Positions 37,601 through 64,000 of a DNA stretch of 64,000 bases are shown here, one piece after another. The notes under the pieces were generated by a model. It saw only the letters and a program-made list of their open reading frames with translations. It did no database searches and was not told the DNA's origin. The DNA is from Patella caerulea (Eukaryota): positions 27,060,901-27,124,900 of the forward strand of contig JAZGQO010000002.1 in NCBI GenBank assembly GCA_036850965.1, written 5' to 3'. The first letter of the stretch is position 1; each line of letters starts with the position of its first letter. Both the position numbers and the translations under genes were made by a program.

Positions 37601-40600
37601 AAAGTCAACAAACTGTTCTACTACGGTGAACGACAATTCCAAATTATCCACTGTAAACTACGTAATAATAAAAGTGATTTAAGATACCATAAGTTCCTCG
37701 ATGTGACTGTGATCTCGACCTAGAAACCACCGAACACTTTTTACTCTACTGTCCATACTACGCACTTCAGCGAAATAATACCATTAATTTATTACCAATG
37801 TATTTTAGAAATATCACTTGCCTACTCTATGGTAATGCCGAATTATCTTTAGACGTCAACAGCGATATTTTTAAATGTCTTTACAAATATATTAAAGATA
37901 CGAAACGTCTTACTCTGTAAAATACAACCTTGGGGTGAGGATTATGATTATAATTATTATTATTTTTTTATTCATTTTTTTATTATTTTTTTTTATTTCT
38001 TTTTTTATTCATTTTTTTAAAAAAAAAAAATTTATTTTTTTTATTTATTTATTTATTTTTTTATTTATTTATTTTTTTTAAATTAATTGATTTATTTTTC
38101 TTTTCCTTACTTTTTTATTATTATTCATTTTTTTTTCTATCATTTTTCTTATATATTTTTTTTTATTATTATTATTTTCTAATTATTTATTTATTTACTC
38201 AAAATTAAAATCTTATTTATTTGTTTAATTGTACCATAACTAAAACAAAAAATTAGTTTTTGTCTGTATCATATATAATTCGACATTGTACATGAATTAT
38301 ACACCCAAACCTGAAGGAAGCAAATTAATATAAGCCTACTTGACTTGTTTTTGTATCCTATTATTTATGCTCTTTTATACTGTATAATATTCTCGAAATA
38401 AATACTGTTTATACCAATTTGTTTTAGATCTCTAGAACAATTAAAATTTCTGATAGAGAAAATTCTAATATCTTAATTATCCTGACATATAACTGGCTGT
38501 CTATAATCAAGGTCAAAAAAGGTACATGGAAGTCAAATACACACCTAGAATACAATTTTCTAAAACCATGTATTTTGATATCAATGGAGTGACCATCGGA
38601 ATAAAGAGAATGTACATAACATGATATTTACCTATGATTCATCCAATGTGGTATATTATAATCATCTCCTATCTCAAATGTTGTCTGGGCATCTTTACTA
38701 TGGAACTGTTAAACAAAAATATACATATTCTAGTGTTTTGTACAGTATGAAACTTATTTCTTTGTTTAATGCAAGTGGATTGTCTACTGGAAGGTTTAAA
38801 GTCTGATGAGGAATTAATTAAATGTATTGAATTATATAACAGGAACATATACCTTAAATAGTGGTGCTGCATGCAATGGTTGTTCTCCCATACAAACTAA
38901 ATCACTTCCAACACCTTAAACATACATCATCAAATAATATTTACTCGGCTTACTAGTAATTTATACATCAAATAATAATATGCATACAATCATATGTAAT
39001 ATACTAATACATCATACATCAAATTACAATCTCTTCATAATATATATCATATATCAAATAACAGCAATATTTCTTTTGCTGACAATATAGAGGGCAAAAT
39101 ATTACCGATTTTTCAAAAAGGAAATTTAATAATTTACCTACCACAATCAATAGTACGTTGTTTAGTAATATTAGTTAATTCACGGTCAACTTCAAATACA
39201 CCTGGACCTGGTGTTATCACTACTGACACTTTACCTGTTCTATCAAAATTACGATCCATATAATGGGTCTCAAATACTAAAAAATAAATATAACCAACAT
39301 TTGAATTAGAATACTACTGAATAAAACAAAATACTTATAAAACATAAACCTGTATTATGATAATACAAATACCCATCTTTACGGGGCGATACTGTACACT
39401 ACCTGGGCACTACAATATAATATCTAACAATATAACCACAAATACACATTTTGTCTAGCTCATTATGTTTTTCATTTCATTAAACTGTTCAGAGTATATA
39501 AGCTGAATTTGGGATTATTAGGTGTTTCATGAATAAATCCTACGCCAGCAATACCATTTCTTAAAGAAAACAGACTGAAATATCAAATAATGACATGCCT
39601 ATTATCAATAAAATAAGACACAATAAAATTTTCAAAACTCTATTTTGTAGGGCTACTCCAAGTTTAAATGATTTATAATCAAAATGAACATACTTACAAT
39701 TTAAAGACATGTTTAGAGTTTCTAGAAAGTTGCCTTGAGCAGCTGTAGAGTTATATCCCATGGGTATATGTTTTCTGTTTTTACGATGATAATGTAAGAC
39801 ACGATCAGCATATTTATTAAAGAGAATGCGTAACTCTCGTAACGTATTTGACCATTCTTCATACATATATCTTTCATTCTGAACTACCACTCTGAAAAAT
39901 GTCAGTAAACATATTTTTACTAATAAACCATAACATATACTTATGGAACAACAATTACTGATTGAAAATGTTGAGAGAATACACTTTGAAACATCGCCTA
40001 AATAAATCAGTAATTGTTCTTCCATAAGAATTTGTTATAGTTTATTGTTCTATCCAGTTAATGAATGTCTCTAAAAGATCATATTTTTACACTGATGTCT
40101 TTGATATACAACATCATGAGTTAAAAAAAATACAAGCTGATAATTTCCCATAGTCATTACCTATAAAAATCTTCATATATTCTTCCTTTACAATCAGTTT
40201 GTAAACAATCTCGAATATGTTCTGGGAAATCATCTGAAAATAAAATGGAATAAGTTACTGTAATAAAATATCCATTAATTTGTGCTAATGTGTATACTCA
40301 TTTTTTCTTTGTTGACAACATACAGTTATAATAGTGATTGAAAACAGATGGCAAGTAATAACACTGATGCTATATTAAAAATGGAAGACAAACCCATAGA
40401 CTGTACATCATAGAATGTTCTGGAGAATAATACTATAGTAACATCATGACAACAATTTTGTTCCTGTAATAAAAATAAAAAGTCCATTTTTCATTTTATT
40501 TCATAAAGTATGTCTCATAAAGAGTTATATTTATACAGTCCCATGAAATTCTAATATCAAAACATAACTCTGGAAGTGACTATTGAATTAAGTTAATAAG

Positions 40601-42218
40601 GTTTCTTCTCCTGAATAAAGTAACCATTCCACAATAATTTATATATTTTAGAAAGATAGAACAATAATTGTAGCCTCAGGAGTACAGATTTGGTTGGCCG
40701 TCAGTATGACAGATCTATTGATGTACAATAAACCTACCTTCCATTTGAGAAATAGATCTGTAAGAAAACCATTAACAGCTTTTTCAAAATACAGATCTCC
40801 GCTAATATCAAAATCCCACATTTCAGATGACATCTGGATAAAAATTTGAACAACAGCTGTGGAAGAACGATAGACTACCTGAAAATATGACAAGCCAACA
40901 GTGAGGCTGATGGCCCCCCGCCGAAATCCCAAAATAAATAGATGACACATATTAATAAATCGCACATTTATTTTTTTCAAACGTATCGAGCAATCAAACT
41001 GTCCACAAAGTGTCATCCAAAAGAGTTTTAAAAAGAAAAATGCTAAAACCGACGAGAAAAATGAAAATGTACCCTAGTTAGGGGGACCAAAAAGGAAGAC
41101 AAAAGGGCCCCCACGCTTGACAAAAGGGCCCCTCTGGCCAAGGGAAAGGGCCCTCGTGTCCAAGTCAATCGTTTCTATACACTGTTACTGTCGAATCCAT
41201 CAATCATGATGAACCTAAGTTATCTTGTCCCAAAGTATCAACCAATCAAATTGCTTATCTCTGCTTAACCTTGGCGGAAAATGCCCATCTTCGAACTCCA
41301 TCAAGGCATTGATCTAATAAGCATATACACCAAGTTTGAACATTTTAACTCAATTAGAAGGAGAGTTATTGTGTTCCAAAGTCTCGACCAATCAAATTGC
41401 GTATCGCTCTGCTTACCCTGAGCAGAAAATGCTCATTATCGAACTTAGTCAAGGTATTACTGTAATGAAACTATACACCAAGTTTCATCACTCTCACTAA
41501 TTAGAAGTAAAGTTATCGTGTCTAAAAACATCAACCAATCAAATTGCTTATCTCTGCTTACCCTAAGCGGAAAATGCTCATCTTCGAACTCCATCAAGGC
41601 ATTGACCCAATATACACCAAGTTTGAACATTTTAACTCAATTAGAAGGAGAGTTATTGTGTTCCAAAGTCTCGACCAATCAAATTGCGTATCGCTCTGCT
41701 TACCCTGAGCAGAAAATGCTCATTATCAAACTTAGTCAAGGTATTACTGTAATGAAACTATACACCAAGTTTCATCAATCTCACTTAATTAGAACTAAAG
41801 TTATCTTGTCCCAAGGCATCAAGCAATCAAATTGCTTATCTCTGCTTACCCTAAGCGGAAAATGCTCATCTTCGAACTCCATCAAGGCATTGACCTAATA
41901 AGCATATACACTAAGTTTGAACATTTTAACTCAATTAGAAGGAGAGTTATTGTGTTCCAAAGTCTCGACCAATCAAATTGCGTATCGCTCTGCTTAGCAG
42001 AAAATGCTCATTATCGAACTTAGTCAAGGTATTACTGTAATGAAAGTTATCGTGTCCCAAAGCATCAACCAATCAAATTGCTTATCTCTGCTTACCCTAA
42101 GTGGAAAATGCTCATCTTCGAACTCCATCAAGGCATTGACCTAATAAACACATACACCAAGTTTGAACATTCTAGCTCAATTAGGAAGATAGTTATTGTG
42201 TCCCAAAAAGTGAGACGG

Positions 42219-42254
<36 letters not shown>

Positions 42255-45200
42255 ACCCATTTTAATAGTCCCCCAACTTTCTTCGAAAGGCAGGGGACAA
42301 AAAATCTAAATTACCATACACCATACAGTGAGCTGAACTATGGGGAATATTTTGCCTGTATAGCAATTAAATTCTGTTGTTTTTACATGCACGACACCAT
42401 GAACTATCCTGTCTGAACAACGAGACACGGTTCCTTGCTAGGCGCTTCATTCAGCACCACTCACATGGGGAAGAACATGCTGAAAAATCCTAGAAAACTA
42501 TCTCAGCCAACACTATGATCGAACCCTGGACATTTATAATGGTGACATATGTGATAATATATTTACCCTGGTTGTATCTGATATAACACCACATGTTACT
42601 TTCTCTCCTTTACTCCATAATTCAACTACTTCAGCTCTATAATCATACAAATTAATACAACAATATCGCCATTGTATAACGTTTTCAGCTAAAAATACAG
42701 TAGCAGTATCACATCTTCACTTTTGTACCCAGTCAAATTGGTACCATTAACCGGGGTTGGATGACCGAATGGTTAGCACAATCATGTCCGCTGTAACATA
42801 GGTTCTGCCATTGAGTCAACTGATGTGGTTTCGATTCCTGGGTTGTACCTTGGTATGGGTCCTCTGGTTTCCCCACACTGATAAAGATCCCTATGTGCAA
42901 GCGAATTATTGAAATAAAATTGAACCATAGTTTGTGTCTAGTGGACGTTCGAGTCCATTTCTCTTTCTCTCTGGTACCATTAACAAATACAGCTACCTTA
43001 ATTAGCCATGATACTGTCGCAAGTGTAATGGTTGGCACACAAATATAAATACAATATAATAGACTTAATAAATAGACATAATAATAAGTGAAAAAAGAAA
43101 AATATAAACAGTTGGGTGAATCATTAAAATTTTTAAAAAAGTGTCAAAAGACATGATCAATCAATCCTTGTCTACTATATACATATTACATTAGATTCAG
43201 TATAAAAACAAGAATGAAATAGATGCATAACCACCACGGTTTCACTCAAAACCCATATACAACAAACCACACCAACCTATTTGAACAAAGGCCAAATTCT
43301 CTAACAAGATCTAATTAATGTATCAATTATTACCTCATTTCTGTGTATTCCACCTTTTTATTCAAATAAACACATCCTCCAATCTGATAATCAATACATA
43401 TGTACAAATATTAATATCCCTCAAAGTAAATATATAATAGACATTTTCAGATTCATACACTGTTAATTATAACTGATACATAATTAATACGAGTTAGGAT
43501 ACTGTGTTGTATTATGACTATAGGTCACCATATATTTATCACCATAATTGTATTGCAATATGATTTCAATTACGATGAATTTACAGGTCACAAATTTAAT
43601 AAGTCAATAAGCATACCCAACTTTGATCAGGTCATTATTGCAGACAGGTGAATCATAATACATTGATTCAACAATTTATATTTTGTAATGTAGGCTCTTT
43701 GTTATCAATTATTTATTTCAACAGAGAGCTGATGCCTTTTTGTGTATCTATGGATGGACATAAAGTTATAATTTCTGAAGATCTTTTAAAACCAATGATA
43801 AAGAAGATTTAATTAGAGAGTTTTAACTACAGAATAACCCTATAAGTTGTTAGAATTTTAAAAACAGATGTATGTATGAATAATTGTGAAAACTTACCAG
43901 ACTTTTCCACATTCGATACATGTCACTTCTACTGAAATACTGCTCTTTAAACAATAACTCTACCAAATCTAATGACACATCCTATAATAGTCATATTCAT
44001 AGAAATCATTGCACTTAATATTTCCTACTGAAACGTTTGAATTTTCAAAAGGGTATTATCACTTAAACCAACAAAATAAATGGTTTTAAAGGGCATAATC
44101 ACTTTTACTAGTAAAACAAAACCAGTAAATTTGGTCAAAACAATTCAACTTTTAGTTTTTGGGGTTCAAGATGAATGAAAAAAAATGCACTCAATTCCTG
44201 CCTGTGATTTTTAGACAACATTTCAAATCTTTAATATTTGGAGCAAAAAGCTTTTGAAAAGAGCAACCAGATACTTTTTGTTTTAACATCTAGGATATAA
44301 GACTATCACTTCTAAGAACATTACAATACTGAGCGCCATAGAAAACGCATCACTTAGTTTTTCGTATAACAAAATGATCCTGTAAACATATCTTATTTAT
44401 TTTGCTTCTTATTGTGAACAATATTCAAATGGGAACACATCAATAACAACACATTTGTACACTTATGGATGTTTAATATGTAATCAACGGTACAAAGTCA
44501 GAGGGGTCAAAACCAAAAGTATTACAAAGATGGTTAATTGTCAGTTGCGCGTGTGTCCTCCACTGGCTCTTACGCACACTGTGCAGCACAATTAACAATC
44601 TTTGTCATGCTTTTGTTTGGGTTATGTACAGGAATATATTTGTAAATCATTATCAAATTCTTACCTTTGGATTAACTTTGCTCACATAAACATCTTTATT
44701 TTTCAGGTGAAAGGCAGCTGCAATTGACTGTTCAATACTGATGGCTTCTAAATAATTTTAATTATAAATAAAATCACATTATATGCGATAAGCTTATACA
44801 GTCCAGTTTAAAAATTGAGAAATAAAATATTTACCTTTCTTAATTACTTTATACAAGTTACCTGTTGTCCTCCATATTTAATTCGACACAAGTACTGTAT
44901 TTATGTGGTTAGGTTTTAATGAAATGTAACCTCCTACTTCCCTGCACCAACTAGACTAATATTAAAGATTGACGATCTGGCATACACAGGCAGAAACTGA
45001 CAAAGAGTACTTTAATGTGCATGCCAAAGTGTAATTAAATGGACCCTTGGTTTTTCGAACCATATTCTGAACTACTAGACAATCTCCTTACAAGACCCTC
45101 CCGTACTGCATGGCTGACATGGCATCGAAAGCAGGACCACCATGTTAACAAGCCAGCACCTTATCCTCTGAGTCACTGCGGCTCCGTGTGCTTAGGGACA

Positions 45201-50170: not shown

Positions 50171-52413
50171 CCAGTAAAATTGACTGGGGCAGATTCCAGT
50201 TTCGACACGAACGGTATTGAATGACATGGGACCTGGCAAGTGTAATGAGACCTGCATTCAAATTCAGAGCTGAACTAGAGACTTAGCTACTTTAAACTAA
50301 AATGTTTTTCAATAAAAAGAACAACAATTGATTGCTAGCTATCTAGTTCTGTTGTGGACGACATTAGACTGTACTTTTACTACTGAGACCCAGACCAGAC
50401 GATTGTTCTGATCGACAGAAGGCCGGAGTCCATGTAGAGATCAGAGAGGGCTTATTATTAGGCTATCAATCACTGATCAGTCAAATATATTGAAACAAAA
50501 TTTTTAATTTTATGTAGGACTTCATGTGTCTCTTTAATGTACTAGCGTGCAAAAATGCATAATTTCTTATTACCTTTCTGTGTCTTGCTATGAAGCGATA
50601 ATTTATAGGTTTTCATTTTCTAGGTTTCTGACACTACACTACTGACACTGACAGTCGACCGTTCGCCTCCATTTTGACTACTAGAGTTACCTGCCCTTTA
50701 GTGTTTAGAATATTATCTAAATATAAAGGGCCAATCTCATACTCTATGTCCAATCTCGATTAGGCCTATATATTGGAGAATAAAACTTCGTAATTTTGTG
50801 TTAAAGGCCCTAAAAATTATCTACCTAAAGGGGGGGGGTACGCGGCACAGTCTACTGTAGGTATTTAAGAGTTATGGTCGGCATATCTGGGGGGGGGGGG
50901 GCAATTACGGGTCTGACTTAATTAAACCCACCAGATTTCACTGTATTGAACTCTGAATAAAAACGGGCAAACAACGAAATCTTAAAGGGGTTACATGTCT
51001 GCATTAGTGATTTTGATGTTCACGTCCAAACGACTCAATATTTTAAGCTGAAATTTTGAGATAAGGTAAAAACACCATTCATATATTTTGGCGCCTAAAT
51101 TTCATACCTAGCCTACATGGAATTTTATTTTAGAGACTATTAAAATCTGGATTGTCCGGGCCTTTAATTTAAGAGCACCTACAAATTTCGTACTCTTGAT
51201 AGCGAAATGTAGCCTATAAGGGTAGGGGTTCTGTTTACAATTCGTGACCTTGACTTTAAGCTTATTTATCATAGGGCCATACATGTATCTACAATTTGAC
51301 AAGCTCCCATTGAGACTGATTTACATTGGTAGGCCTATTATCCCATTTGTTTATAGTATAAAAGTACATTTAAATAAACTTTGATATGTATAGTATACTC
51401 GTATACACAGACACGTATAGGCTTACCGTATCGGATATAGGCTAGGCCTAATTAACTAATATTAAAAGACGTTTTATGCCTGCTGAGGCGCTGGAGGCGC
51501 GAGCCTCCTCGTAAAAATAAAATCAAAGAAATTGAACAAATAAAACGGGAGAAAAATGCTATAGGCCTAACCAATGAGAAAAAAGAAATGTACCGTAGTT
51601 GGGGGGTGGGGCTAAGGACAGACAAAAGGCCCCCGAGTCTGACAAAAGGCCCCCTCTGGCCCGTGAAAGAGGGCCCTCAAATAGTATAGCCTCCTCGTGA
51701 AAGAAAATCAAAGAACTTGAACAAATAAAACTGGGAAAAATGCTAAAACCAATGAGAAAAATGAAATGTAGGCTACCCTAGTTAGGAACATGTGTTTGAC
51801 AAACTCACTGCCAAACTTTATCTACGGTAACAACAGCTTTTGTATTGATTTTTCAAGTGAGTAGGCCCTATGATGCATTGGGGTATTTAATTGTACAATG
51901 GATTTTGTTTAACCGGAGGTAATTTCAACAAACAGGTAGGTTTTTTTATAACTGTAGTTTACATAGAGCCAAAAAGCATAAATTATGTGTTATCAGCCAA
52001 TTCGTGCAAATTTGGGTGAAACCATTGTGCAAATTTGGGGAAAAGCATGAAATTTGGCACAAACATACTTTAGACTATACTGATCAATCGTGGGGTAAGG
52101 GCCAAAAATATTTCCCACTATTTTTCAAAATGGCCGCCATTTTCAAAATGACCACTAATTATGCTTTAAAATGTTGAGGAGATTGATGATATTGGTTTAC
52201 GGTACCTATATATTGCTTTATGTTATCTCAGAATCATCTTGAATTGCATACTGATGAATGTTTTGATGTTTACAATATCATTTGGTGATTCAAGATGGCT
52301 GCCGAATTCAAAATGGCCGCCGATTCCATAAAAATGTTTAAATGATAGTGAGTAATATCGTCCTGTAGTTTTAATCAAAACTCAATACCAAAATCATCTG
52401 AATATAAATTTAG

Positions 52414-53254
52414 GTGAATGCTTTTTATCTGTTAAAGGTGTTTCTGAAATCAAGATGGCTGCCAAATAAGGTTGCCACGCTCAAAATGGCTGCCAAGTGT
52501 TATATGCTGCGAACTGTTGACACAGATGTAGTTGTCCTATCTACAGCATTGTTCAACCGGATCAATGTGACCGAACTTTGGGTGTCATTTGGTACTGGTA
52601 AGAATTGCAGACTAATTCCAGTTCACACCATTTCCAAGACATTAGGTCCACAGAAATCAATGTCTCTTCTAATGTTCCACGCCTTCACCGGTCGTGACCA
52701 GACTTCTTTCTTTCTTAATCGAGGAAAGAAAACTGCCTGGCAAACAAGCAAAGTATACAAGGATGCTGACGAATCCTTTGCAGTTCTTAGTAGAGCTCCA
52801 CCATCAGTAGAAGAGTTGCATAATCATGTCAACAATTGGGAGATTTGTTATCCTCGTGTATGACAGGACAAGTTCGTGTGAAAGTGTTGATGAAGCCCGC
52901 CAAGAACTTTTTACTCATAAGGGAAGGGCAATTGAGCCAATCCCACCAACCTCAGCAGCACTTTTTCAGCATGCGAAAAGAGCTCTATTTCAGGCCGCCT
53001 ATGTATGGGGCCAAGCCTTGCTACGGACCCCCGAGTTGCCAGACCCATCAGATTGGGGATGGAGAAAAGGAACTTCAGGCATGTGGGAGCCTCTATGGAC
53101 AACTCTACCTGAGGCTTGTAAATCCTGCCAGGAGCTAATCAAATGTGGCTGCAATGTAGATAAAGGATGCCGTGGTCGATGCAAATGTGTCAAGGCAGGG
53201 GTTGCATGTACAACGTACTGCAAAGGCCATGGGGATTGTGAACGCCCCTCTTAG
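52414..53254 (+). pseudogene. Frameshifted ORF of a widely distributed metazoan transposon-type protein. N-terminal region '...RLIPVHTISKTLGPQKSMSLLMFHAFTGRDQTSFFLNRGKKTAWQ...'. Cys-rich CxC-like C-terminus 'CKSCQELIKCGCNVDKGCRGRCKCVKAGVACTTYCKGHGDCE'.
   Basis: Two overlapping listed ORFs, 52414..52863 and 52826..53254, are out of frame with each other, which implies one frameshift. The 'HAFTGCD..SxFxGxGKK.AW' motif and the Cys cluster are typical of a repetitive TE-borne ORF seen in many invertebrate and fish genomes. This is pattern recognition, not a database hit. Confidence 0.55.
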
Positions 53255-53380
53255 TGCCAGAAGGGCATTTGGTAGTGTGACTTCACTTATTTTGGCCTTT
53301 CGACATTTGAATGACACATACCAAATGAGGTGAGAAGCAACAGTAACTTGGAACTGTATATGATATAAGAGAGGTTGCGG

Positions 53381-53533
53381 AATCCCGTACGGCAGGCATT
53401 TTCATACGGGATACAGCATGTTTTCATAGTGATTCAATGAACTGTGACCCATAGTTCATTGAATCACAATGAAAACATGCCACATCCCGTATGAAAATCC
53501 TGCCGTACTGGATTCCGCAACCTCTGTATTATC
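53381..53533. repeat. Near-perfect 153-bp palindrome. Hairpin with a ~72-bp stem and a ~9-nt loop.
   Basis: gaggttgcggaatcccgtacggcaggcattttcatacgggatacagcatgttttcatagtgattcaatgaact-gtgacccat-agttcattgaatcacaatgaaaacatgccacatcccgtatgaaaatcctgccgtactggattccgcaacctc. Confidence 0.9.
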
Positions 53534-53799
53534 TTTCTAGTTAAGACTGAGTATTATTGATCAAGGTACTAATCTGCAACAACGTCTGTCATTTTAAATT
53601 AAATGACCATATTGAATTATAATTAATTTTCTGATTAAGCTAGTTTAAACATAAGAATCCACATCAAAACTAAAGTTTGTGGCCAGTAAATTCACATGAA
53701 AGGGACTCGTTTATGGTACCTGGTGAACATTTTTGATTCGAAAGCCATGTTGGATTTTGAATCCCCTGTTTAGTTCGATTTGATCTAATAAGCCCTTAC

Positions 53800-54330
53800 A
53801 ATAAGCCAAATTACTGTAATAATGGCGGCCATTTTCAATTTGGCGGCCATATTGGATTTTAGAACATACCTTGTTTACTTGAACTTAAAAAGATATGTCG
53901 ATCCTACATTTAGATGTATATTTAGTCAATTGTAAGCGCATCATGCATAATGAACATCATAATTACTGTAATAACGGTGGCCATTTTGAATTTGGCGGCC
54001 ATATTGGATCTTAGAATATCCTGTTTACTTCAATATGGTCAGATATGTCATATCCTGCATGAAAATGTATATTTAGTTAATTGTAAGGACACTACAGATA
54101 ATAAGCTCTTGCTAAAAACAATATTACTGTAATAATGGTGGCCATTTTGAATTTGGCGGCCATATTGGATTCTAGAGTACCCTGGTTACTTGAATTTGGT
54201 CAGATATGTCAGATCCTGCATTTATATGTATATTTGGTCAATTCTAAGCACATCACAGGTAATAAGCTCTTACAGTAGACAAAATTACTGTAATAATGGT
54301 AGTCATTTTGAATTTGGCGGCCATATTGGA
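53800..54330. repeat. ~120-bp x 4 tandem array inside the DNA transposon. Each unit has paired ATGGCGGCCAT motifs ('taataatggcggccattttgaatttggcggccatattggat').
   Basis: Four direct units. Related isolated motifs: 'aaaatggccgccatttt' (52131), 'caagatggctgccgaattcaaaatggccgccg' (52288) and 'caagatggctgcc...caaaatggctgcc' (52449-52492). Confidence 0.8.
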
Positions 54331-56749
54331 TTTACAGACAGAAACTCAATAGGCCCTTACCCACAAGTTAATAAGCACGTAAAAAGCTACCTTTGTGCCA
54401 ATTTTCACGCTTTTCCCCAAAAGTGCACAATTTTCTTGTATTGACTCACCATATTGCAGTACTACAAGGTTCTTGACTCGGAAATTATTACAGCTCATTA
54501 TTTGAATGGCAATTGTATTTAAAGATACATAATGGGAGATTTTTATAAATAGTTGGCCATTCTTGCTATGCCAGTTCAAAAATAGATCATAAAAGAAGTA
54601 AAAAAATTCAGTACCGTTAGCTTATTCGGTTTTAGATGGGTCTGCAATTCAATTCGTATTACTATGTGGCACCGTTCAGTTAAAATGGAATTAAATAGGA
54701 ATTTACTGCTGATTTGATATCAATATTAATGAGGTTGGATGGATTTTAAACATGTTTAAGATTCACGAGAGTTTAATATTAGAATGGTCCATTAAATTTA
54801 ATATCGCCATTATAATAATATGCTTCAGTCAGTACTGGACGGGATTTTTCCAAGCCAGGTTGGTTTAATCTTTTATAATTGAGTAGCATTCTACATGTAT
54901 ATCCGAGCTCTGCAAGGTTTTTATTGTTGTTTTGTTGTTAATTCTAATATTATTAAATCAGAGACATATAAACCAATACAGTTTAATTAGTGCTTCTGTT
55001 GGTAATTGATGAGGGGCGCATACTTTGCTTGTAATGCTATACAAGACTCGGCTTGCCTTTTTTACAAAGGTCAGATGAATATAGCTGCTTCAAGAAAAAG
55101 TATTATTTGTTATATTTATCCTAAATGAGAATTAATAAATATCCAGACAAGCATCACAAAAAGTAAAATTTACATTTTTTCGCCGGGTTCTATGATCAGA
55201 TGGTACGTTTATGAAATACACGTGGGTTTACTGTTAATTTGCACTTAGTTTAAATTCATTCAGGCGGCTACGTTGTTTTTGAAGATCTTGCAATGAATTT
55301 GGAAATAATAAAGAAGTGAATGGCCTAAGTGAATGGCCTATGAGCAACTGCATATGCAGTTCTTGGTGTTAGAAGCAATTTAAACACAGATAGGCATAAT
55401 ATTCTAAATTCTATCCGTACAATGACTGGTAACCAGCAACTACTTTAAAGCCCCAATAACACTCTTGTTGTTACTAATTAATATATCCCAATCTTCATTC
55501 TGGTCAACAAATTGTATTATTTTAGAACATTCCAATTAAATGATGATATAAATTTCATCTTAACACACCTATTTGGAAAAATTGGAAAAATTCAACCAAT
55601 TGATTTGAAAAGTCTAACGTAAGCCTTTTCAAATGTGACTTGGATTTTGAAATATTTTCGAACCATCTGGACAAGTAAAATAGGTTGTAATGGATAATTT
55701 ACACAACAGGTAGGACACTTAAACATCTAGTACTTAGAATATGGGTATTATTTATTTTCTGGAGCTACCAAGCCACCAAGAATGTTATTGTCCCTTTAAG
55801 ACAAGGGTGATGTGCTCATGGGATGATGCACGACTTACAATACGGGCAGCTTTGTTTTGGGTGTTCTGCAGTATTTGGAGCGATTTGTTTGGAAGACCAT
55901 AAGCAAGTTGTAGTAGTCTAGTTTGGATGTCATAAAGACGAAGTTTACATTTTTTTTATAGAGATGATAGTTACCTCATTTACAAATATTAGTAATGTGA
56001 CCAAGCAGAGACATGTTAGTTAAGTTTAATCAATATTCTATTCAATAAGCTGAATTGGATTGAACAACAGGCAAAGGCCTATATGGTGAACATATGTACC
56101 AACAGTGTGTTACAAACAAATGATATATTACCTGGAGTGTAGTTTAAGTTTTAAATGTTAAAGTGTTAAAATCTCTTGCTGTCTTTCACGTTTGCACTAT
56201 TTCGCACATGTTAGAATTGGTATTATCTGAAAGATCAGGACTGCCATAAATATATAAGATCAGGTCAGTTGTAATATTTTGTTTAAGGTGGTGTAGATTA
56301 TTTTTGACATTTGTTTTGGGGGCAGAGTATGCTGGACATATGAAAAATAATATTTTATGTAGAATTACGCTTAGGACACTCTTTTGTTTTACTAATAAAA
56401 TGGTAAAATAAGTGATTGTTTAAATTACTAGCCTTTTTTCTTAATTGACAATGGATAATATTGTCTTTCCTATTTCCAGTATTATAACAGCGTAGTGGGC
56501 TTATTACAGGATACCCACGTGAAAGTCACAATTTAAGTGCACTTAACGTTTGTGCGGTTTTAATAATTTCAGGTAAGTTGTTCCGAAGTTTAATTGTGCA
56601 GGGAAAGAACAATTAGAATATGAACTTGGTTTACAAAATGGTAGATTGAGGTTCAGATTTTCATTATGAAGGTTACAATTTGACACTGACAGATAAATTA
56701 GACTTAGGTTTAACAAAATGGTAGATTGGGCTCAGATTTTTATTATGAA

Positions 56750-58400
56750 GGTTATAATGACGGTTCAAATTTCTTAAAGGCTTCAGACAGATAAGTGGGA
56801 CTTAGATTATTCTTTATTTTATGTAAATAATTTAATTTGTGTTTTATTCTGCGATTAGACAATGATTCCCAACCAAGCTCTTTGTATAAATTATTTTTAG
56901 ATGAATTTCTTCTGAGGCCAGTTATTATTCTACCTGCTTCAGTTTGTACACTTTCTAATAGTTCAAAATCCTTCTTAGAACAGTTATTCCATACAATATC
57001 AGCATATTCTAAGATGGGACCAATAAAAGCAAGATATAATATATTAAATGAAATTCTATTAATTTTATATTTCAGTATACGCAAAATATTAGGTCAACCT
57101 CAAGCTTTCTGGACCCTGTTTCTCGAAATCTTAACTAAAGATACAGTCCAAATTTTAGTAGATATTTCAGTTTTAATTGGCTAAGCACTAAAATGAATCT
57201 AATATTATCCAATCAAATTAACAAAATGTGGATTTTATCTTAGTTAAAATTTCGTGAAACAGGTCCCTGATATATATTTGAAACATATTCTGACCATAAT
57301 GCATTAGACTGAAAAGTTAATCCCAAATGACAATGAGTAGTTACGTTTTCAATTTTTTGTATTTTCAAAAATAACGTCTGGATGGATTGTAGTTTTCCGA
57401 GTAAAAGTAATATGTTTAGTTTTATTTGGGTTAAAAGTTACACACCATTGTTTAGCCCAAGATGAGATAATAATCAGATCTTCAGTTATAGAGTTCGCGC
57501 TACTAAGATGATCATTATGAATAATTGTAACAGTTGCATGTTGTTAGTAATATTATCGGAGATTTCATTTAGATAAATTAAAAATAGGAAAGGACCAAAC
57601 ATACGTCCTTGGGGAACACCAGAATCGGTATGTTTGATTTGAAACCTTCGAAAACTACACATTGTTTTCTATTAAAAAGTGTCCAATCCATTTACATAAT
57701 ATTTGATTCATTCCATATTGTTTTAATTTAGACAATAAACCTATATGACAAACTTTATCAAAAGCTTTTGATACATCACAAAATATAAATCGAATTTGCT
57801 ATCCTTTATCAAGATTAATAATTATAACATCTTTAGGTTGAAAACCAGACATATGCTTATATAACAGGTTATTTTCTTTTATAAAATTATAAAGCTTTTT
57901 GAATAAGATTTTCTGTAGTATTTTACATAATGAGCATGTTAATGAAATTGGTCTATGTTGTGGGACTGAGGGTCACACTTTCCTTTATACACTGCAATGC
58001 TAATGTGAAGTCTATGTTAGAATCGAATTGAACGCCAAGATTCTTAAAGATGGAATGTCAGAATTACCACTGAATTAGTCTCTAATTTACAGAGTTGATT
58101 ATTACGACCAAATTTGGTAACTTCTTTTTGTCATCGTTAAGTTTATTCACATTACTAGCCAGAGATGACTGCTTTATAATATATATAATTCCGAGTCATC
58201 TGCGTACAAATGAAAGTCAGTCCCATGGTTACGGATTATATGTCATATGGGAGTTGTGTACACAGTAAAAAGTAATGTCCTAATACTGTTCTGGGGGACA
58301 CCATTATTGAACCCAATTGATTCAGAAACAGTTTTGTTAACTGAGGCCATTTGAGTACGTTCATAGAGATAAGATTAGAACCACCCTAGTGTCGCATCTA
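56750..58400 (-). mobile_element. Degraded CR1-like LINE fragment in reverse orientation. Contains an RT core with frameshifts plus the C-terminal region, and a 3' UTR with a ~75-bp tandem duplication at 56620-56760.
   Basis: Listed ORF 56752..57084 (-) gives 'YLAFIGPILEYADIVWNNCSKKDFELLESVQTEAGRIITGL...'. The reverse complement of 57560-57640 encodes 'GVPQGRMFGPFLFLIYLNEI', the canonical RT motif. Confidence 0.7.
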
Positions 58401-58439: not shown

Positions 58440-58860
58440 GTGTGTCAATGGAGCTACATCGCTAATATTAGAGACCTGTAATTGACACAGATGGGTCGCA
58501 ACGCATATCATAATGCAAAATGTAAATAAACTGATTTACATTCAACCTTTTCTGTTTTTACTGTAATTTCTAATCAGTTATGTTCGGCGAAATACGCTAG
58601 AAATCTCAATCGAATGGCTATTTCTGGTGTCTGGCTATTCCAGTCTACACCGAAAGTATTTATTGCACACGCTCTCCAGATAAGAACATAGGGTCACCGT
58701 TTGATATTACTTATGGAATATTTCTAGCCTAGTTATTCGAATCCCTTGTTACAAATGGCGCAGATTCGTGTGCCAATGGTAAAATGTTTATTTTGTCTTA
58801 AATATTGGATATCAGACGTCCATCTTTTCCTGGTAAGATCACAAAATTAATGTTTATTGT
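58440..58860. repeat. ~420-bp segment duplicated at 61240-61620. The upstream copy is where satellite element C inserted.
   Basis: 'tgggtcgcaa...tgatttacattcaa...cagttatgttc.gcgaaata...ctggttattccagtctaca...ggatatcaga.g.cca.cttttcc.gtaagatcacaa...aatgtt' aligns between the two copies. Confidence 0.75.
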
Positions 58861-58909
58861 CCCCCGCCCTTTCGAAGAAAGTTGGTGGACTATTAAAATG
58901 GGTTCGTCC

Positions 58910-58959
<50 letters not shown>

Positions 58960-60727
58960 CTGTCCGTCTGTCTGTCCGTCACACTTTTTGGGACACAATA
59001 ACTCTCTTCCTAATTGAGCTAGAATGTTCAAACTTGGTGTATGTGTTTATTAGGTCAATGCCTTGATGGAGTTCGAAGATGAGCATTTTCTGCTTAGGGT
59101 AAGCAGAGATAAGCAATTTGATTGGTTGATGCTTTGGGACACGATAACTTTAGTTCTAATTAAGTGAGATTGATGAAACTTGGTGTATAGTTTCATTATA
59201 GTAATACCTTGACTAAGTTCGATAATGAGCATTTTCTGCTCAGGGTAAGCAGAGCTATACGCAATTTGATTGGTCGAGAATTTGGAACACAATAACTCTC
59301 TTTCTAATTGAGTTAAAATGATCAAACTTGGTGTATATGCTTATTAGGTCAATGCCTTGATGGAGTTCGAAGATGAGCATTTTCCGCTTAGGGTAAGCAG
59401 AGATAAGCAATTTGATTGGTTGATGCTTTGGGACACGATAACTTTAGTTCTAATTAAGTGAGAGTGATGAAACTTGGTGTAGAGTTTCATTATAGTAATA
59501 CCTTGACTAAGTTCGATAATGAGCATTTTCTGCTCAGGGTAAGCAGAGCGATACGCAATTTGATTGGTCGAGACTTTGGAACACGATAACTCTCCTTTTA
59601 ATTTAGTTGAAATGTTCAAACTTGGTGTATGTGCTTATTAGGTCAATGCCTTGATGAAGTTCGAAGATGAGCATTTTCCGCTTAGGGTAAGCAGAGATAA
59701 GCAATTTGATTGGCTGATGCTTTGGGACACGATAACTTTAGTTCTAATTAAGTGAGATTGATGAAACTTGGTGTATAGTTTCATTATAGTAATACCTTGA
59801 CTAAGTTCGATAATGAGCATTTTCTGCTCAGGGTAAGCAGAGCTATACGTAATTTGATTGGTCGAGAATTTGGAACACAATAACTCTCCTTCTAATTGAG
59901 TTAAAATGTTCAAACTTGGTGTATATGCTTATTAGGTCAATGCCTTGATGGAGTTCGAAGATGAGCATTTTCCGCTTAGGGTAAGCAGAGATAAGCAATT
60001 TGATTGGTTGATGCTTTGGGACACGATAGCTTTAGTTCTAATTAAGTGAGCGTGATGAAACTTGGTGTATAGTTTCATTATAGTGATACCTTGACTAAGT
60101 TCGATAATGAGCATTTTCTGCTCAGGGTAAGCAGAGCGATAAGCAATTTGATTGGTCGAGACTTTGGAACACAATAGCTCTCATTCTAATTTAGTTAAAA
60201 TGTTCAAACTTGGTGCATATGCTTATTAGGTCAATGCCTTGATGGAGTTCGAAGATGAGCATTTTCTTCTAAGGGTAAGCAGAGATAAGCAATTTGATTG
60301 GTTGATGCTTTGGGACACGATAACTTTAGTTCTAATTAAGTGAGAGTGATGAAACTTGGTGTATAGTTTCATTACAGTAATACCTTGACTATGATCGATA
60401 ATGAGCATTTTCTGCTCAGGGTAAGCAGAGCGATAAGCAATTTGATTTGCCGAGACTTTGGAACACAATAACTCTCCTTCGAATTGAGTTAAAATGTTCA
60501 AAATTGGTGTGTCTGCTTCGTAGGTCAATGCCTTGATGGAGTTCGAAGATGAGCATTTTCTTCTTACGGTAGGCAGAGATAAGCAATTTTTGGATGACAC
60601 TTCGTGTTCAGTTTGATTGGTCGATACGTTTGAAAAAAATAAATGTGCGATTAATTACTATGTGTCATCTATTTATTTTGGGATTTCGGCGGGGGACATC
60701 AGCCTCACTGTTGGCTTGTTTAAATTT
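58861..60727 (-). mobile_element. Satellite-carrying nonautonomous element, copy C, in reverse orientation. (GTCT)n tract at 58900-58980 and about 5.5 units of 294-bp tandem repeats at 59040-60600. Insertion is supported by a paralogous empty site.
   Basis: Flank 58440-58860 plus the post-insertion flank 60728 onward ('tttaaatttacaaata') is collinear with 61240-61640 ('...caatgttgatttaaattgacaaata'). The 61240-61640 copy lacks the element. Termini are the reverse complement of copies A and B. Confidence 0.75.
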
Positions 60728-62299
60728 ACAAATATTCTAGAGTAGGTACATATTTATAGTGGATTTATGTCTGAACTTCAGCGAAATTAATATTAACATT
60801 TATCTCCGATGGTTAAAGATAACATGTTTACCGACCGCTGCTACAGATGATATATCTACTATATGAAACAATATTAAAATATTTAATGTCCATATCACTA
60901 TAGATAATGTACTTATTGATTGAACAATATTAAAATATTGGAATGGAATTACCATAAACAAGATATCCACTATAGATAACTATTGTTTAAACGCTATTAA
61001 ATATTTGATCCCCATAAAATTATAGACAGTGTTTTTAAAGTGTCACTTCGCCACTTTAATATTTGATAACCATATTAGTATAATAATACATGTGATCACC
61101 ATATTATTATATCTAATGCACTTACTGTATGGACTATTTTGAAATATGTGTTTACACTAGCAGGGGCTCAATGAGAAGGACGCAATGATGAGCTTTTGCA
61201 TCATGTTTTTTAGTTTTTGCGCCATATTAAAGGGGCTAAATCGCTAACTATTGGGAACTAGATAATTTACACAAATGGGTCGCAATGGATATAATAATGT
61301 AATCTGAATGTATATAAACTGATTTACATTCAAACATTTCCGTCTTTACTCTAATTTCAAATCAGTTATGTTCAGCGAAATATACGAAATATCTAGCGTC
61401 TGGTTATTCCAGTCTACATAGTATTTATTGCGTATTCTCTCCAGTTAAGAATATGCATCACCGTATATCCTCGTTCTTCAAGTCCCTTGTTAAAAATGGG
61501 CCTGAAGCGCATGATGGTACACGATTCATGTACCAATGGTACTTTTTTTTATTTTGTCTTAAAAATTGGATATCAGAAGCCCACCTTTTCCCGTAAGATC
61601 ACAACATCAATGTTGATTTAAATTGACAAATAATTCGTGTTTTCATTGTCGATGATTTTGGATGATATTCAGTGAGAGACTTAGCTACTTTAAGCTTTTG
61701 TGCTCCGTTTCAAATGTCAAAAGATCATGCGGTTTCGATGCGGATTGCAACATTATAATCATGATACTAGATATACCCCGCACGTAATATATATAAATCC
61801 TGGCTCACCACGTCCCTGGCCACAGGAACAGATAGCTGGATGTTTTACTCTAGTATGATATGTGTTGCTATAAGGAAATGTTGGTGGGTGACCGGATGGT
61901 GGAAACTGCATATCTGTCATGGGAGACCAGCCAATAGGAGGGGCTATATCCATGCTTTTTATAACACCGAATGTAAAGCGTGATTATTTGTTGACGTCAG
62001 TCTGTTCAACGTTCAGTTTTCAGATGAATTTGGTGATCCATTGTAGATTAAACTTCTTTCGTCAGCATTAAGATATTCGTTTATTGAGTTATCCTGAGCA
62101 AAGCAACTAAATGATCTGAAATAAAGTTACCATCTGGTTGACAAACCAGGCAGTAATTTCAAAAAGTCGATAGCTGCATTTTGTTGTTCCGTTCGACTTG
62201 TTTCAAATAGCTGCTTTTAATTGTGTGGTGATCTGATACGCATATTTATAGCCCGATCCGCGTCCTCAGTTTAGACGATCTCATCGCGCAGGTTTCAGT

Positions 62300-64000
62300 C
62301 ATTGTTTATTGGTCACTGGGCGAGGAAGGCCGTTTCCCTCTCACAGTTAGTATTTAGTAATTAATAATTATCTAATTTAATTGTACATTTTTAAGAACTG
62401 TAGCTTTGTTATTGTGTCGCCTATATGTTAATGCTTATGTATATTGTTGTTTCATTTTCGTAAATACGTCCTTACACGCGCTGTCATTAGCCCGCTATCT
62501 GTTGGCTGCACGTGGTTGTGATTGATAGGTGTTTCTTGTACCACGTGGTTACATCACGTGATTTTAGGGTATATACCCCATGTCTTGCCTCGTAGCACAG
62601 TAGTCGGAATCTAGTTGTAGTCGGAATGTAGTCGGAGTTGAAGTCGTAGTCTGAATCGAGCCATAGAAGTGGTAAAACAGAGTCTGACCCCGACGTATAG
62701 GGAGCGATTAATAGAGCCCGGTTCGGAGCTATGGAGATAGCCCAACAAGGAGCGTTATAGTCTGACCCCGACTTATAGGGAGCGATATAGAGATAGCCCG
62801 GCAAGTAGCGTTATAGTCTGACCCCGACTTATAGGGAGCGATATAGAGATAGCCCGGCAAGGAGCGTTATAGTCTGACCCCGACTTATAGGGAGCGATAC
62901 AGAGAGCCCTTCTAGGAGCGTTTACAGAGCCCGATAAGAAGCGATTAATAGAGCCCGACAAGGAGCGTTTCGAGAGCCCGACTAGGAGCGTTTAGTGCTG
63001 GCGAGTGTTGGTCGGAAATGAGCTATTTTTGTATTAGGAGATTAATAAAGAGAGTTGCTAGCTATTTTTGTATTTAGGAGAATAATAAAGAGAGTTGCTG
63101 ATTAATCTGGTGTTAGTCTTTCTGAGCCAGCTGCTTGGTTGGCTACTCCCACACCTCTACAGTAGTGAACCCTCAACAGAACCAACGGATAGAGCCAGGC
63201 CCACTCTACCACAGTAATCTGCTCTATCCGGAGATCCAGTTCACTACAGAAGTTTTCTGGTGGCAGAGGTGGGATACAGATTGACAAACCCCGAGACGGA
63301 ACCAGAAAACCCAGGATACAGATAGACCACCCCCAGGATCCAGACAGACAGATCGGATGGAGCCAGATAGCCAGACTTCTCCGAGTTATTTCAGAGCTGA
63401 GAGAGGAGCTGCCCAGTTTGATGTTAGCTCAACTATAGAATCCACAGAAGAGCCAAGGAGGAAGAATGCATTAGAAAGGCTTCGCGATACGATCTCAAGA
63501 CAAAGAGCGAAACCGGTTTGTCCAAATGCACAGAGCCTGATGAATAATTTGTCGGGAGCCAGAGCCAATGCTGAAGAATCATTTGATGCTGGTTTTACAG
63601 AACAGAAGAAAGAACTAAATTATCAACAGTCGGATATGTTGACTCCAAGGAACAGCTCTGAAGCTTCAGTATGTGATAACTGGCGGTCACCAAGTAATTG
63701 TAGAGCCCCCGTCGGAGCGGCGACTCCTGATGTCATGGGAAGTCCGGATTTAATTAGAAATGAGAAACTTTATCACCACGAAATGCCGAAGCCCAGTGAA
63801 GATGAGCAAGATTTTATTTCTGGACCGAGCCGCGGTATAACAGAATTGAATAACACCAAATGGAAAGAGCAGGATCAGAGGAAGTCTAATATGCCCAGAA
63901 GGAACATGATTACTCCTCAGCCATTTGATGGAACGAGCTCAATTATGGATTATCAGATTCATTTCGAGACCTGTGCTGAATTGAATAGATGGGATGAAAC
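62300..64000 (+). mobile_element. 5' portion of an LTR retrotransposon. Putative 5' LTR region with a 58-bp x 4 tandem at 62690-62930, then a gag ORF running beyond the window end.
   Basis: An open frame from the ATG at about 63357 to 64000 with no stop, at least 215 codons. It ends with the gag N-terminal motif 'ITPQPFDGTSSIMDYQIHFETCAELNRWDE', typical of Ty3/gypsy and BEL-Pao capsid N-termini. AATAAA at 63075. LTR boundaries not determined. Confidence 0.6.
63357..64000 (+). CDS. Retrotransposon Gag, N-terminal part; ORF truncated by the window end
   Basis: Translation 'MEPDSQTSPSYFRAERGAAQFDVSSTIESTEEPRRKNALERLRDTISRQRAKPVCPNAQS...KPSEDEQDFISGPSRGITELNNTKWKEQDQRKSNMPRRNMITPQPFDGTSSIMDYQIHFETCAELNRWDE'. 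Absent from the ORF track, presumably because there is no stop inside the window. Confidence 0.6.
   Translation, partial: MEPDSQTSPSYFRAERGAAQFDVSSTIESTEEPRRKNALERLRDTISRQRAKPVCPNAQSLMNNLSGARANAEESFDAGFTEQKKELNYQQSDMLTPRNSSEASVCDNWRSPSNCRAPVGAATPDVMGSPDLIRNEKLYHHEMPKPSEDEQDFISGPSRGITELNNTKWKEQDQRKSNMPRRNMITPQPFDGTSSIMDYQIHFETCAELNRWDE

Follow-up and report, generated by a model that had tools for sequence, protein, structure and literature searches.

The window analysed here, 64,000 nucleotides of DNA from Patella caerulea (contig JAZGQO010000002.1 of assembly GCA_036850965.1, forward-strand positions 27,060,901 to 27,124,900), is an AT-rich (29-44% GC) and transposon-dense metazoan sequence which harbours three copies of a composite repeat unit. 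Most of it is covered by an orthologue of the DEPDC5/Iml1 gene on the minus strand (1243-48764). Each copy of the unit consists of a left and a right arm enclosing a tetranucleotide microsatellite and a satellite-like array of 147-bp monomers. Element C, a complete copy of 1,862 bp with 11 monomers, lies on the plus strand at 58858-60719, some 10 kb upstream of the most N-terminal DEPDC5 coding exon found. Two further copies are located on the minus strand inside introns of the gene: copy A (8872-10090; 1,219 bp, 5 monomers), which has unrelated flanks, and copy B (40890-42304; 1,415 bp, 7 monomers, one of them truncated). A preliminary description of this DNA had already recognised the three copies and their common termini, and the shared ends are borne out by arm profiles. 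The limits that it gave for C (58861-60727) are 3-8 nt off those set by empty-site and three-copy alignments, and those for A (8874-10090) and B (40893-42300) have likewise been corrected to the values above.

Element C interrupts a host segment of ~430 bp that is present as two direct copies on the same strand, one filled (58447-58857 plus 60720-60739) and one uninterrupted (61229-61637, plus strand, delimited by alignment and profile search). These copies are now 2.8 kb apart, and their spacing before the insertion was 0.92 kb. The left flank of C (58447-58858) aligns with 61229-61618 at 72% identity over 424 columns (E 3e-62), while homology on the right is restricted to the ~20 nt at 60720-60739, which match 61618-61637 (TTTAAATTtACAAAT-ATTC). 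Past those ~20 nt the local score of 23 falls within the range of shuffled sequences (16.1 ± 2.6, maximum 26.5), and the homology is not significant. Of the ~0.4 kb of flank originally thought to align on each side, the left part thus stands and the right part does not, C having inserted ~20 nt short of one end of the duplicated segment. The homology limits of the segment are sharp, with no obvious terminal inverted repeat or target-site duplication (TSD), and no homology was found upstream of the segment. Searches of the window with nhmmer profiles revealed neither a third copy of the host segment nor any solo arm outside the three paired arm sets. The segment itself may have arisen by local duplication long ago, or be a decayed repeat.

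The uninterrupted paralogue reads straight through without the element, as had been proposed. When the two flanks, one ending at 58857 and the other starting at 60720, are fused into a chimeric 'empty' construct, its alignment to 61558-61637 shows zero gap at the junction, where the filled copy reads ...AATGTTtA^TTTAAATTtAC... and the paralogue ...AATGTTgA^TTTAAATTgAC.... In agreement with the preliminary description, no TSD is visible at this one testable junction; nor is there a footprint. Moreover, the same alignment, which had been suggested as the place to look for the ragged ends of a deletion, is colinear and gap-free. The insertion-equivalent point in the paralogue, a 72%-identical diverged relative of the filled site and not an allele of it, lies between T61617 and T61618 (...AATGTTGAT^TTAAATTGAC...). 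The target is T-rich (...GTTGAT^TTAAATT...) and can be read as T^T, or as A^T (58856^58857) if the boundary is moved by one. Owing to the flanking Ts, the limits of C slide by ±2 nt, so that 58857-60718 and 58859-60720 are equivalent to the coordinates used here.

An independent definition of the ends comes from the comparison of the three copies with each other. Profiles of the left and right arms recover, with both BLAST and nhmmer, exactly three paired places in the window (E 1e-18 to 1e-44), with nhmmer envelopes at 58857-58908 and 60592-60719 for C (plus strand), at 10089-10038 and 8997-8872 for A, and at 42301-42250 and 41018-40890 for B (both on the minus strand). The exact points where homology ends in the three-copy alignments are (T)nG[T/A]CCCC at one end and GGCTTGT at the opposite one, and the flanks of A, B and C beyond these points are mutually unrelated. 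The two definitions, one from the filled and empty paralogues and one from the limits of homology among copies, agree within 2 nt. Such a coincidence is not expected from local amplification, segmental duplication or ragged deletion, and it argues for a mobile unit and not a locally amplified satellite, as was initially supposed. In this line, the arms are 94.8-95.4% identical in pairwise comparisons between copies, as against 72% for the host paralogues, which indicates that the insertion of C is younger than the host duplication. Together with the orthology of the monomers at the array edges, described below, the same difference indicates that the composite was copied as a whole after that duplication. 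At this locus, therefore, a composite unit that codes for no protein has inserted precisely and without a TSD into a T-rich site, and its several copies keep their asymmetric ends. With the occupied site, the empty paralogue and both other copies inside 64 kb, the demonstration is clean and self-contained. The preliminary description was wrong in detail, namely in the extent of the right flank and in a few nucleotides of the coordinates, and not in substance.

Read along the plus strand of C, which is taken as the sense strand, the parts of the element follow each other as T-run, 5' subterminal inverted repeat (subTIR), complementary inverted-repeat hairpin, (GTCT)n microsatellite, tandem array, right arm, 3' subTIR and palindrome. 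The 5' subTIR GTCCCCCGCC (58859-58868, plus strand) lies 1-2 nt from the 5' terminus and the 3' subTIR GGCGGGGGAC (60688-60697, plus strand) ends 22 nt before the 3' terminus. This is the 10-bp inverted motif reported near both ends in the first place; the 10-mer has five matches with at most one mismatch in the window, all inside the three copies, against 0.23 expected. The complementarity of both subTIRs is complete in C (10/10), with one mismatch or indel in A and B. Directly inside the 5' subTIR is the left-arm inverted repeat (58869-58890, plus strand), made of an inner palindrome CTTTC-GAA-GAAAG and the heptamer GGTGGAC, which reads GGGGGAC in A and B. Located 15 nt past the 5' subTIR and complementary to it, this heptamer closes a 5' hairpin whose predicted DNA fold ranges from -5.1 to -7.9 kcal/mol in the three copies (z -1.6 to -2.9). 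A spacer of about 15 nt separates the inverted repeat from the (GTCT)n/GTCY microsatellite, which extends over 58906-58980 (plus strand) with 18.8 units according to TRF and has ~10 units in A and B.

At the other end, the right arm (60598-60719 in C, plus strand) is 122-128 nt long and finishes in a short palindrome, ACA-tc-AGCC-(N8)-GGCT-TGT (60696-60719, plus strand), which is kept in all three. The boundary T-run at the 5' end measures 5, 6 and 2 nt in A, B and C, respectively, and a T is found at the 3' boundary of every copy. The termini can be summarised as T(n)GTCCCCCGCC...GGGGGAC at the 5' side and GGCGGGGGACATCAGCC...GGCTTGT at the 3' side. The element has a GC content of 38% and the copies have no coding capacity, their longest open reading frames (ORFs) being of 112-126 aa and those in the arrays being periodic satellite read-through.

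The central array of C (58987-60597, plus strand) contains 11 monomers of 147 bp, in which two types, a and b, alternate, with type a at both ends. TRF reports it as a 146/294-bp array at 58987-60589 with a 294-bp higher-order period (94% matches, 10.9 monomers), and finds matching arrays with tetranucleotide runs on the opposite strand at 9238-10040 and 41217-42252. The initial reading of a 147-bp doublet accompanied by (GACA)n holds with these data, (GACA)n being the reverse complement of (GTCT)n; microsatellite and array follow each other in a single order and orientation in all three copies. Types a and b are ~78% identical to each other and 87-100% identical within a type, and one of each makes up the 294-bp higher-order unit. 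The layout is a-b-a-b-a in A, a-b*-a-b-a-b-a in B (b* being the truncated monomer) and (a-b)x5-a in C. The length of the array therefore differs in its interior (5, 7 or 11 monomers), with orthologous edges: the first monomers A1, B1 and C1 are 96-98% identical, compared to at most 95.7% with internal type-a monomers, the penultimate A4b and C10b are 99.3% identical, and the last ones, A5a and C11a, are 94.3% identical, compared to at most 93.2% with any others. As the monomers at both edges are orthologous by position, the array must have travelled with the arms.

Two further observations concern the monomers. A hairpin TCTGCTTA-GGG-TAAGCAGA, found at 59089-59107, occurs at the equivalent place in every 147-bp monomer of the three copies. 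Its 8-bp stem, closed by a 3-nt loop, is perfectly paired in type a (-6.3 kcal/mol, z -2.6) and carries one mismatch in type b (TCTGCTCA). In addition, the proximal part of the right arm at 60609-60656 (AGTTTGATTGGTCGATACGTTTGAAAAAAATAA) resembles the b/a monomer junction (AATTTGATTGGTCGAGACTTTGGAACACGATAA), of which it appears as a degenerate version, and positions 17-61 of the right-arm profile weakly match every monomer junction (E 0.005-1). The array seems either to have grown out of arm sequence or to decay into it.

Taken together, these features make it very probable that element C, like copies A and B, is a HINE, i.e., a non-autonomous Helentron ('Helitron-N' in Repbase usage), carrying a satellite-like array as cargo. 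As defined by Thomas et al. (2014, PMC4067079), such elements have subTIRs of ~11-15 bp, the 5' one located 2-4 nt from the terminus, a complementary inverted repeat, a microsatellite, central repeats and a 3' stem-loop, and both HINEs and the related DINE-1 show variable T-runs at their boundaries, a preference for TT targets and no TSD. Apart from the 3' stem-loop, in whose place C has a conserved but weak palindrome, these parts are present in C in the canonical order and orientation, and the tentative Helentron-associated, pearl/CvA-like assignment of the preliminary description gains support accordingly. Several points nevertheless weigh against the assignment. The fold of the 3' palindrome (-3.2 kcal/mol) is no better than that of shuffled sequences (z about -0.6), the subTIR has 10 bp instead of the typical 11-15, and its 3' copy ends 22 nt from the terminus, nearer than the ~38-60 bp of mite HINEs (PMC4067079). 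The target preference is deduced from one empty site and three T-rich boundaries, with T^T and A^T not separated. The window contains no autonomous Helentron with a Rep/helicase ORF, there being no ORF above 169 aa outside the satellite arrays, and the tie of the family to a Helentron transposase is one of architecture only. Nor did additional copies emerge from the collections searched. A scan of metagenome contigs with the 3'-terminus pattern CATCAGCCTCANTGTTGGCTTG gave one match and no genuine copy, and a 124-aa ORF that reads through the array had no match among 5.8 billion proteins, thus adding no further copies. The single metagenome match was rejected as a HINE, as it lies inside the coding region of a bacterial membrane protein with no similarity around it and is attributable to chance.

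The closest alternative would be a non-autonomous canonical Helitron of the Helitron1 type instead of a Helentron, a classification compatible with the missing TSD, with a junction that can be read as A^T within its 2-nt ambiguity and with the filing of the oyster equivalents as DNA/Helitron in Repbase. The ends make it improbable: the termini are T(n)GTCC...GGCTTGT and not 5'-TC...CTRR-3', the 16-20-nt GC-rich palindrome at ~11 nt from the 3' end is lacking, and subTIRs, inverted repeat, microsatellite and boundary T-runs are traits of Helentrons and HINEs and not of canonical Helitrons (PMC4067079). The short size of the element, its lack of coding capacity and the 10-bp inverted repeats near both ends could also suggest a cut-and-paste miniature inverted-repeat transposable element (MITE), with GTCCCCCGCC and GGCGGGGGAC as the terminal inverted repeats to which a DDE transposase binds, which is how pearl and DTC84 were first classified. 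This option is quite improbable, given that DDE transposons make TSDs and none is seen in the zero-gap colinear alignment of the one testable junction. Moreover, the repeats are subterminal and asymmetric, the distance to the terminus being 1-2 nt for one and 22 nt for its counterpart, and pearl itself has since been moved to the non-autonomous Helentrons (PMC7492417).

Less credible again is an immobile block whose three copies would stem from segmental duplication and whose 'empty' paralogue from a deletion. A local duplication would indeed be consistent with filled and empty segments on one strand at a distance of just 2.8 kb, and only three copies are visible. Such a history is, however, highly improbable when A, B and C have unrelated sequence on either side up to the very ends of the element, when the deletion would have to be exact to the nucleotide at both ends, and when divergence is much lower between the arms (95% identical) than between the host paralogues (72%). 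Finally, hardly any credence can be given to a SINE-like (short interspersed nuclear element) retroposed unit on the opposite strand, with a CAAGCCAAC head and a GGGGGACAA(A)n tail, where the copies do end in short A-runs (AAAAA, AAAAAA, AATAAA), because there is no TSD and no tRNA-like, 5S or 7SL head (no matches with ARAGORN or Rfam), because a run of 2-6 A is the variable T-run typical of HINE 5' ends (PMC4067079), and because retroposition leaves the subTIR and hairpin anatomy unexplained.

With the HINE assignment, and by analogy with what is known of Helitron and Helentron biology, the spread of the family would proceed as follows. An autonomous Helentron located elsewhere in the genome would provide a Rep/helicase(-endonuclease) that acts in trans on the ends of the element, with the T-run and subTIR hairpin as candidate signals at the 5' end, and the subTIR and short palindrome at the 3' end. 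One strand would be nicked at the 5' end and displaced by rolling-circle replication up to the 3' signal, and the resulting single strand would then be joined into a T-rich or TT target. Such a single-strand rolling-circle transfer would account for the asymmetry of the ends as well as for the lack of a TSD. The array would be a passive cargo, with shifts of its interior length (5, 7 and 11 monomers) caused by unequal exchange or slippage. In this regard, a satellite-like array is dispersed here as the cargo of a Helentron-type element, and this is how the unusual scattering of satellites in oyster genomes has been proposed to come about.

A more speculative extension, which we regard as unlikely, is that the transposition machinery itself alters the length of the array in addition to unequal exchange, the hairpins of the monomers serving as alternative pause or termination signals for rolling-circle replication, so that a/b dimers would be gained or lost at each round. 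Such a remodelling by transposition would be in keeping with the presence of one hairpin per monomer, with the orthologous edges of the same type, with the variable interior and with the proximal right arm having the look of a decayed monomer. If true, HINEs would be active makers of satellite arrays and not mere carriers.

Concerning the host gene, a C-terminal exon of the DEPDC5 orthologue lies within 1243-1752 (Pfam DEPDC5_CTD, E 7e-17; closest protein match 64% identical), and exons of the Pfam IML1 domain were recognised on the minus strand at ~48629, 43981, 42636-42567, 40878-40738, ~40442, ~40231 and 39561-40025. Once concatenated, these exons match positions 1-155 of IML1 in one stretch (E 6.5e-47), and the exon at 40878-40738 matches positions 64-110 from its first residue (E 1e-19). 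The introns of the gene hold copy A and also the elements D and E described below. Copy B, which runs from 42304 to 40890 in the orientation of the gene, takes up 84% of the 1,688-nt intron 42566-40879, and its 3' terminus GGCTTGT lies 11 nt (CATATTTTCAG) upstream of the splice acceptor of the exon at 40878-40738. Because copy B ends so close to the acceptor, the branch point of this intron must be located in the right arm of the HINE. A candidate is the CTCAC motif in the loop of the 3' palindrome, which fits the yUnAy consensus and has its A at 24 nt from the AG. Copy B is thus a candidate case of a transposon that supplies splice signals.

At least two other HINE-like elements, D and E, occur in the window, both on the minus strand. 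They belong to a different family, which is characterised by T5 at the 5' boundary, a palindromic subTIR, a microsatellite and arrays of 145-150 bp, and the genome is evidently rich in elements of this kind. Element D (~26540-28303) has a TTTTT-ATACGTCCACAT..ATGTGAATGTAT..GCCGTCGCCCC head followed by a (GTCT/GT)n run, an array of 145/292 bp at 26820-28243 (9.8 monomers) and a 3' subTIR ATGTGGACGTATA at 26552-26540, palindromic as in the HINEs of mites and Culex. Element E (~33543-35350) shows a head of the same family (TTTTT-ATACGCCCACATGGAAATGTGGTCGTATA..GCCGTCGCCCC) followed by (GTCC)n, and a 150-bp array at 34020-35144 which is continued by degenerate monomers down to ~33700. A second, truncated E head (35350-35262) directly upstream points to a head-to-tail or nested double insertion, and a further head fragment of the E type is observed at ~26385-26300. 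The monomers of D (GGGGT.GGGCATGC.ACCCC) and E (CTCTAGAG) likewise hold palindromes. For annotation purposes, the 147-bp, 145-bp and 150-bp arrays of the window should be masked as transposon interiors and not called satellites.

A DNA transposon with 40-nt terminal inverted repeats that are 90% complementary (52024-52063 and 54392-54431) occupies 52024-54431. It contains inverted subterminal repeats of the GGCGGCCATTTTGAA type, including a 161-bp array of 2.3 units at 53961-54332, and its internal ORFs at 52414-53254 encode a Cys-rich protein with no Pfam match. The 161-bp array was considered as another HINE and discarded, since it is part of the subterminal repeat region of this transposon. 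The ORFs at 36845-37723 (plus strand) and 56752-57084 (minus strand) gave no Pfam match at E<=0.01; in stretches such as ...ILEYADIVWNN... they resemble the C-terminal region of a LINE (long interspersed nuclear element) reverse transcriptase. ARAGORN and Rfam searches retrieved no tRNA genes and no Rfam families in the window. Its most GC-rich stretch is 62001-64000 (44%), and tandem repeats of 56 bp (x3.1, 95% matches), 30 bp and 23 bp are located at 62730-62994.

The layout of A, B and C, with an arm, a microsatellite, core repeats and a second arm, is the same as that of the tandem-repeat 'MITEs' pearl/CvA of oysters, MgE of mussel and DTC84 of Donax, whose core repeats are of ~150-170 bp. 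The core repeats of pearl, the one re-categorised as a Helentron derivative, are related to the ~166-bp Cg170/HindIII satellite (PMC7492417); the monomers described here have 147 bp. Among the elements reviewed by Thomas et al. (PMC4067079), DINE-1 and the HINEs share with the present family the subTIRs, an inverted repeat next to the 5' subTIR, the microsatellite and the central repeats, as well as variable T-runs at the boundaries, TT preference and the lack of TSDs, and their boundaries were also checked by paralogous empty sites. The family departs from them in the short distance of the 3' subTIR to the end and in the very weak fold of the palindrome that lies where they have a 3' stem-loop. 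The lepidopteran (GTCY)n 'MITEs' (Coates et al. 2011), in the terms in which they are cited in PMC4067079, are DINE-1-like elements with a hitch-hiking GTCY microsatellite, a likeness by description with another phylum.

The most detailed parallel is offered by the eleven Cg_HINE elements of Crassostrea gigas, several families of which have GTCY, GTCC or GTCK microsatellites in common (Vojvoda Zeljko et al. 2020, PMC7492417). As in the family described here, their left arm includes a 5' subTIR, a complementary inverted repeat and a GTCY-type microsatellite, and their right arm a 3' subTIR and a palindrome, the latter folding only weakly in the present family. They also contain a short satellite-like central array of 2-11 monomers in fixed orientation, and have T-rich or TT targets, no TSD and frequent insertions into other repeats, as seen via paralogous empty sites (PMC7492417). 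Two differences are a subTIR of 10 bp here versus 11-12 bp in Cg_HINE (PMC7492417), and an array organised here as a higher-order repeat of a/b dimers. The subTIR, 3'-end and monomer-core strings, when sought in full texts and in the supplements on Cg_HINE and the oyster satellitome, where the published consensuses exist as figures, matched unrelated primers and oligonucleotides only, and nothing in those supplements. By description, the nearest likeness in monomer size is to Cg_HINE_6 (Repbase Helitron-N18_CGi, cluster CL6), with 147-bp monomers and 39.6% GC (PMC7492417), compared to 147 bp and an element of 38% GC in the present case. Altogether, the A/B/C family is a further example of a well-described kind of element known from oysters, clams and flies, and possibly an already named one.

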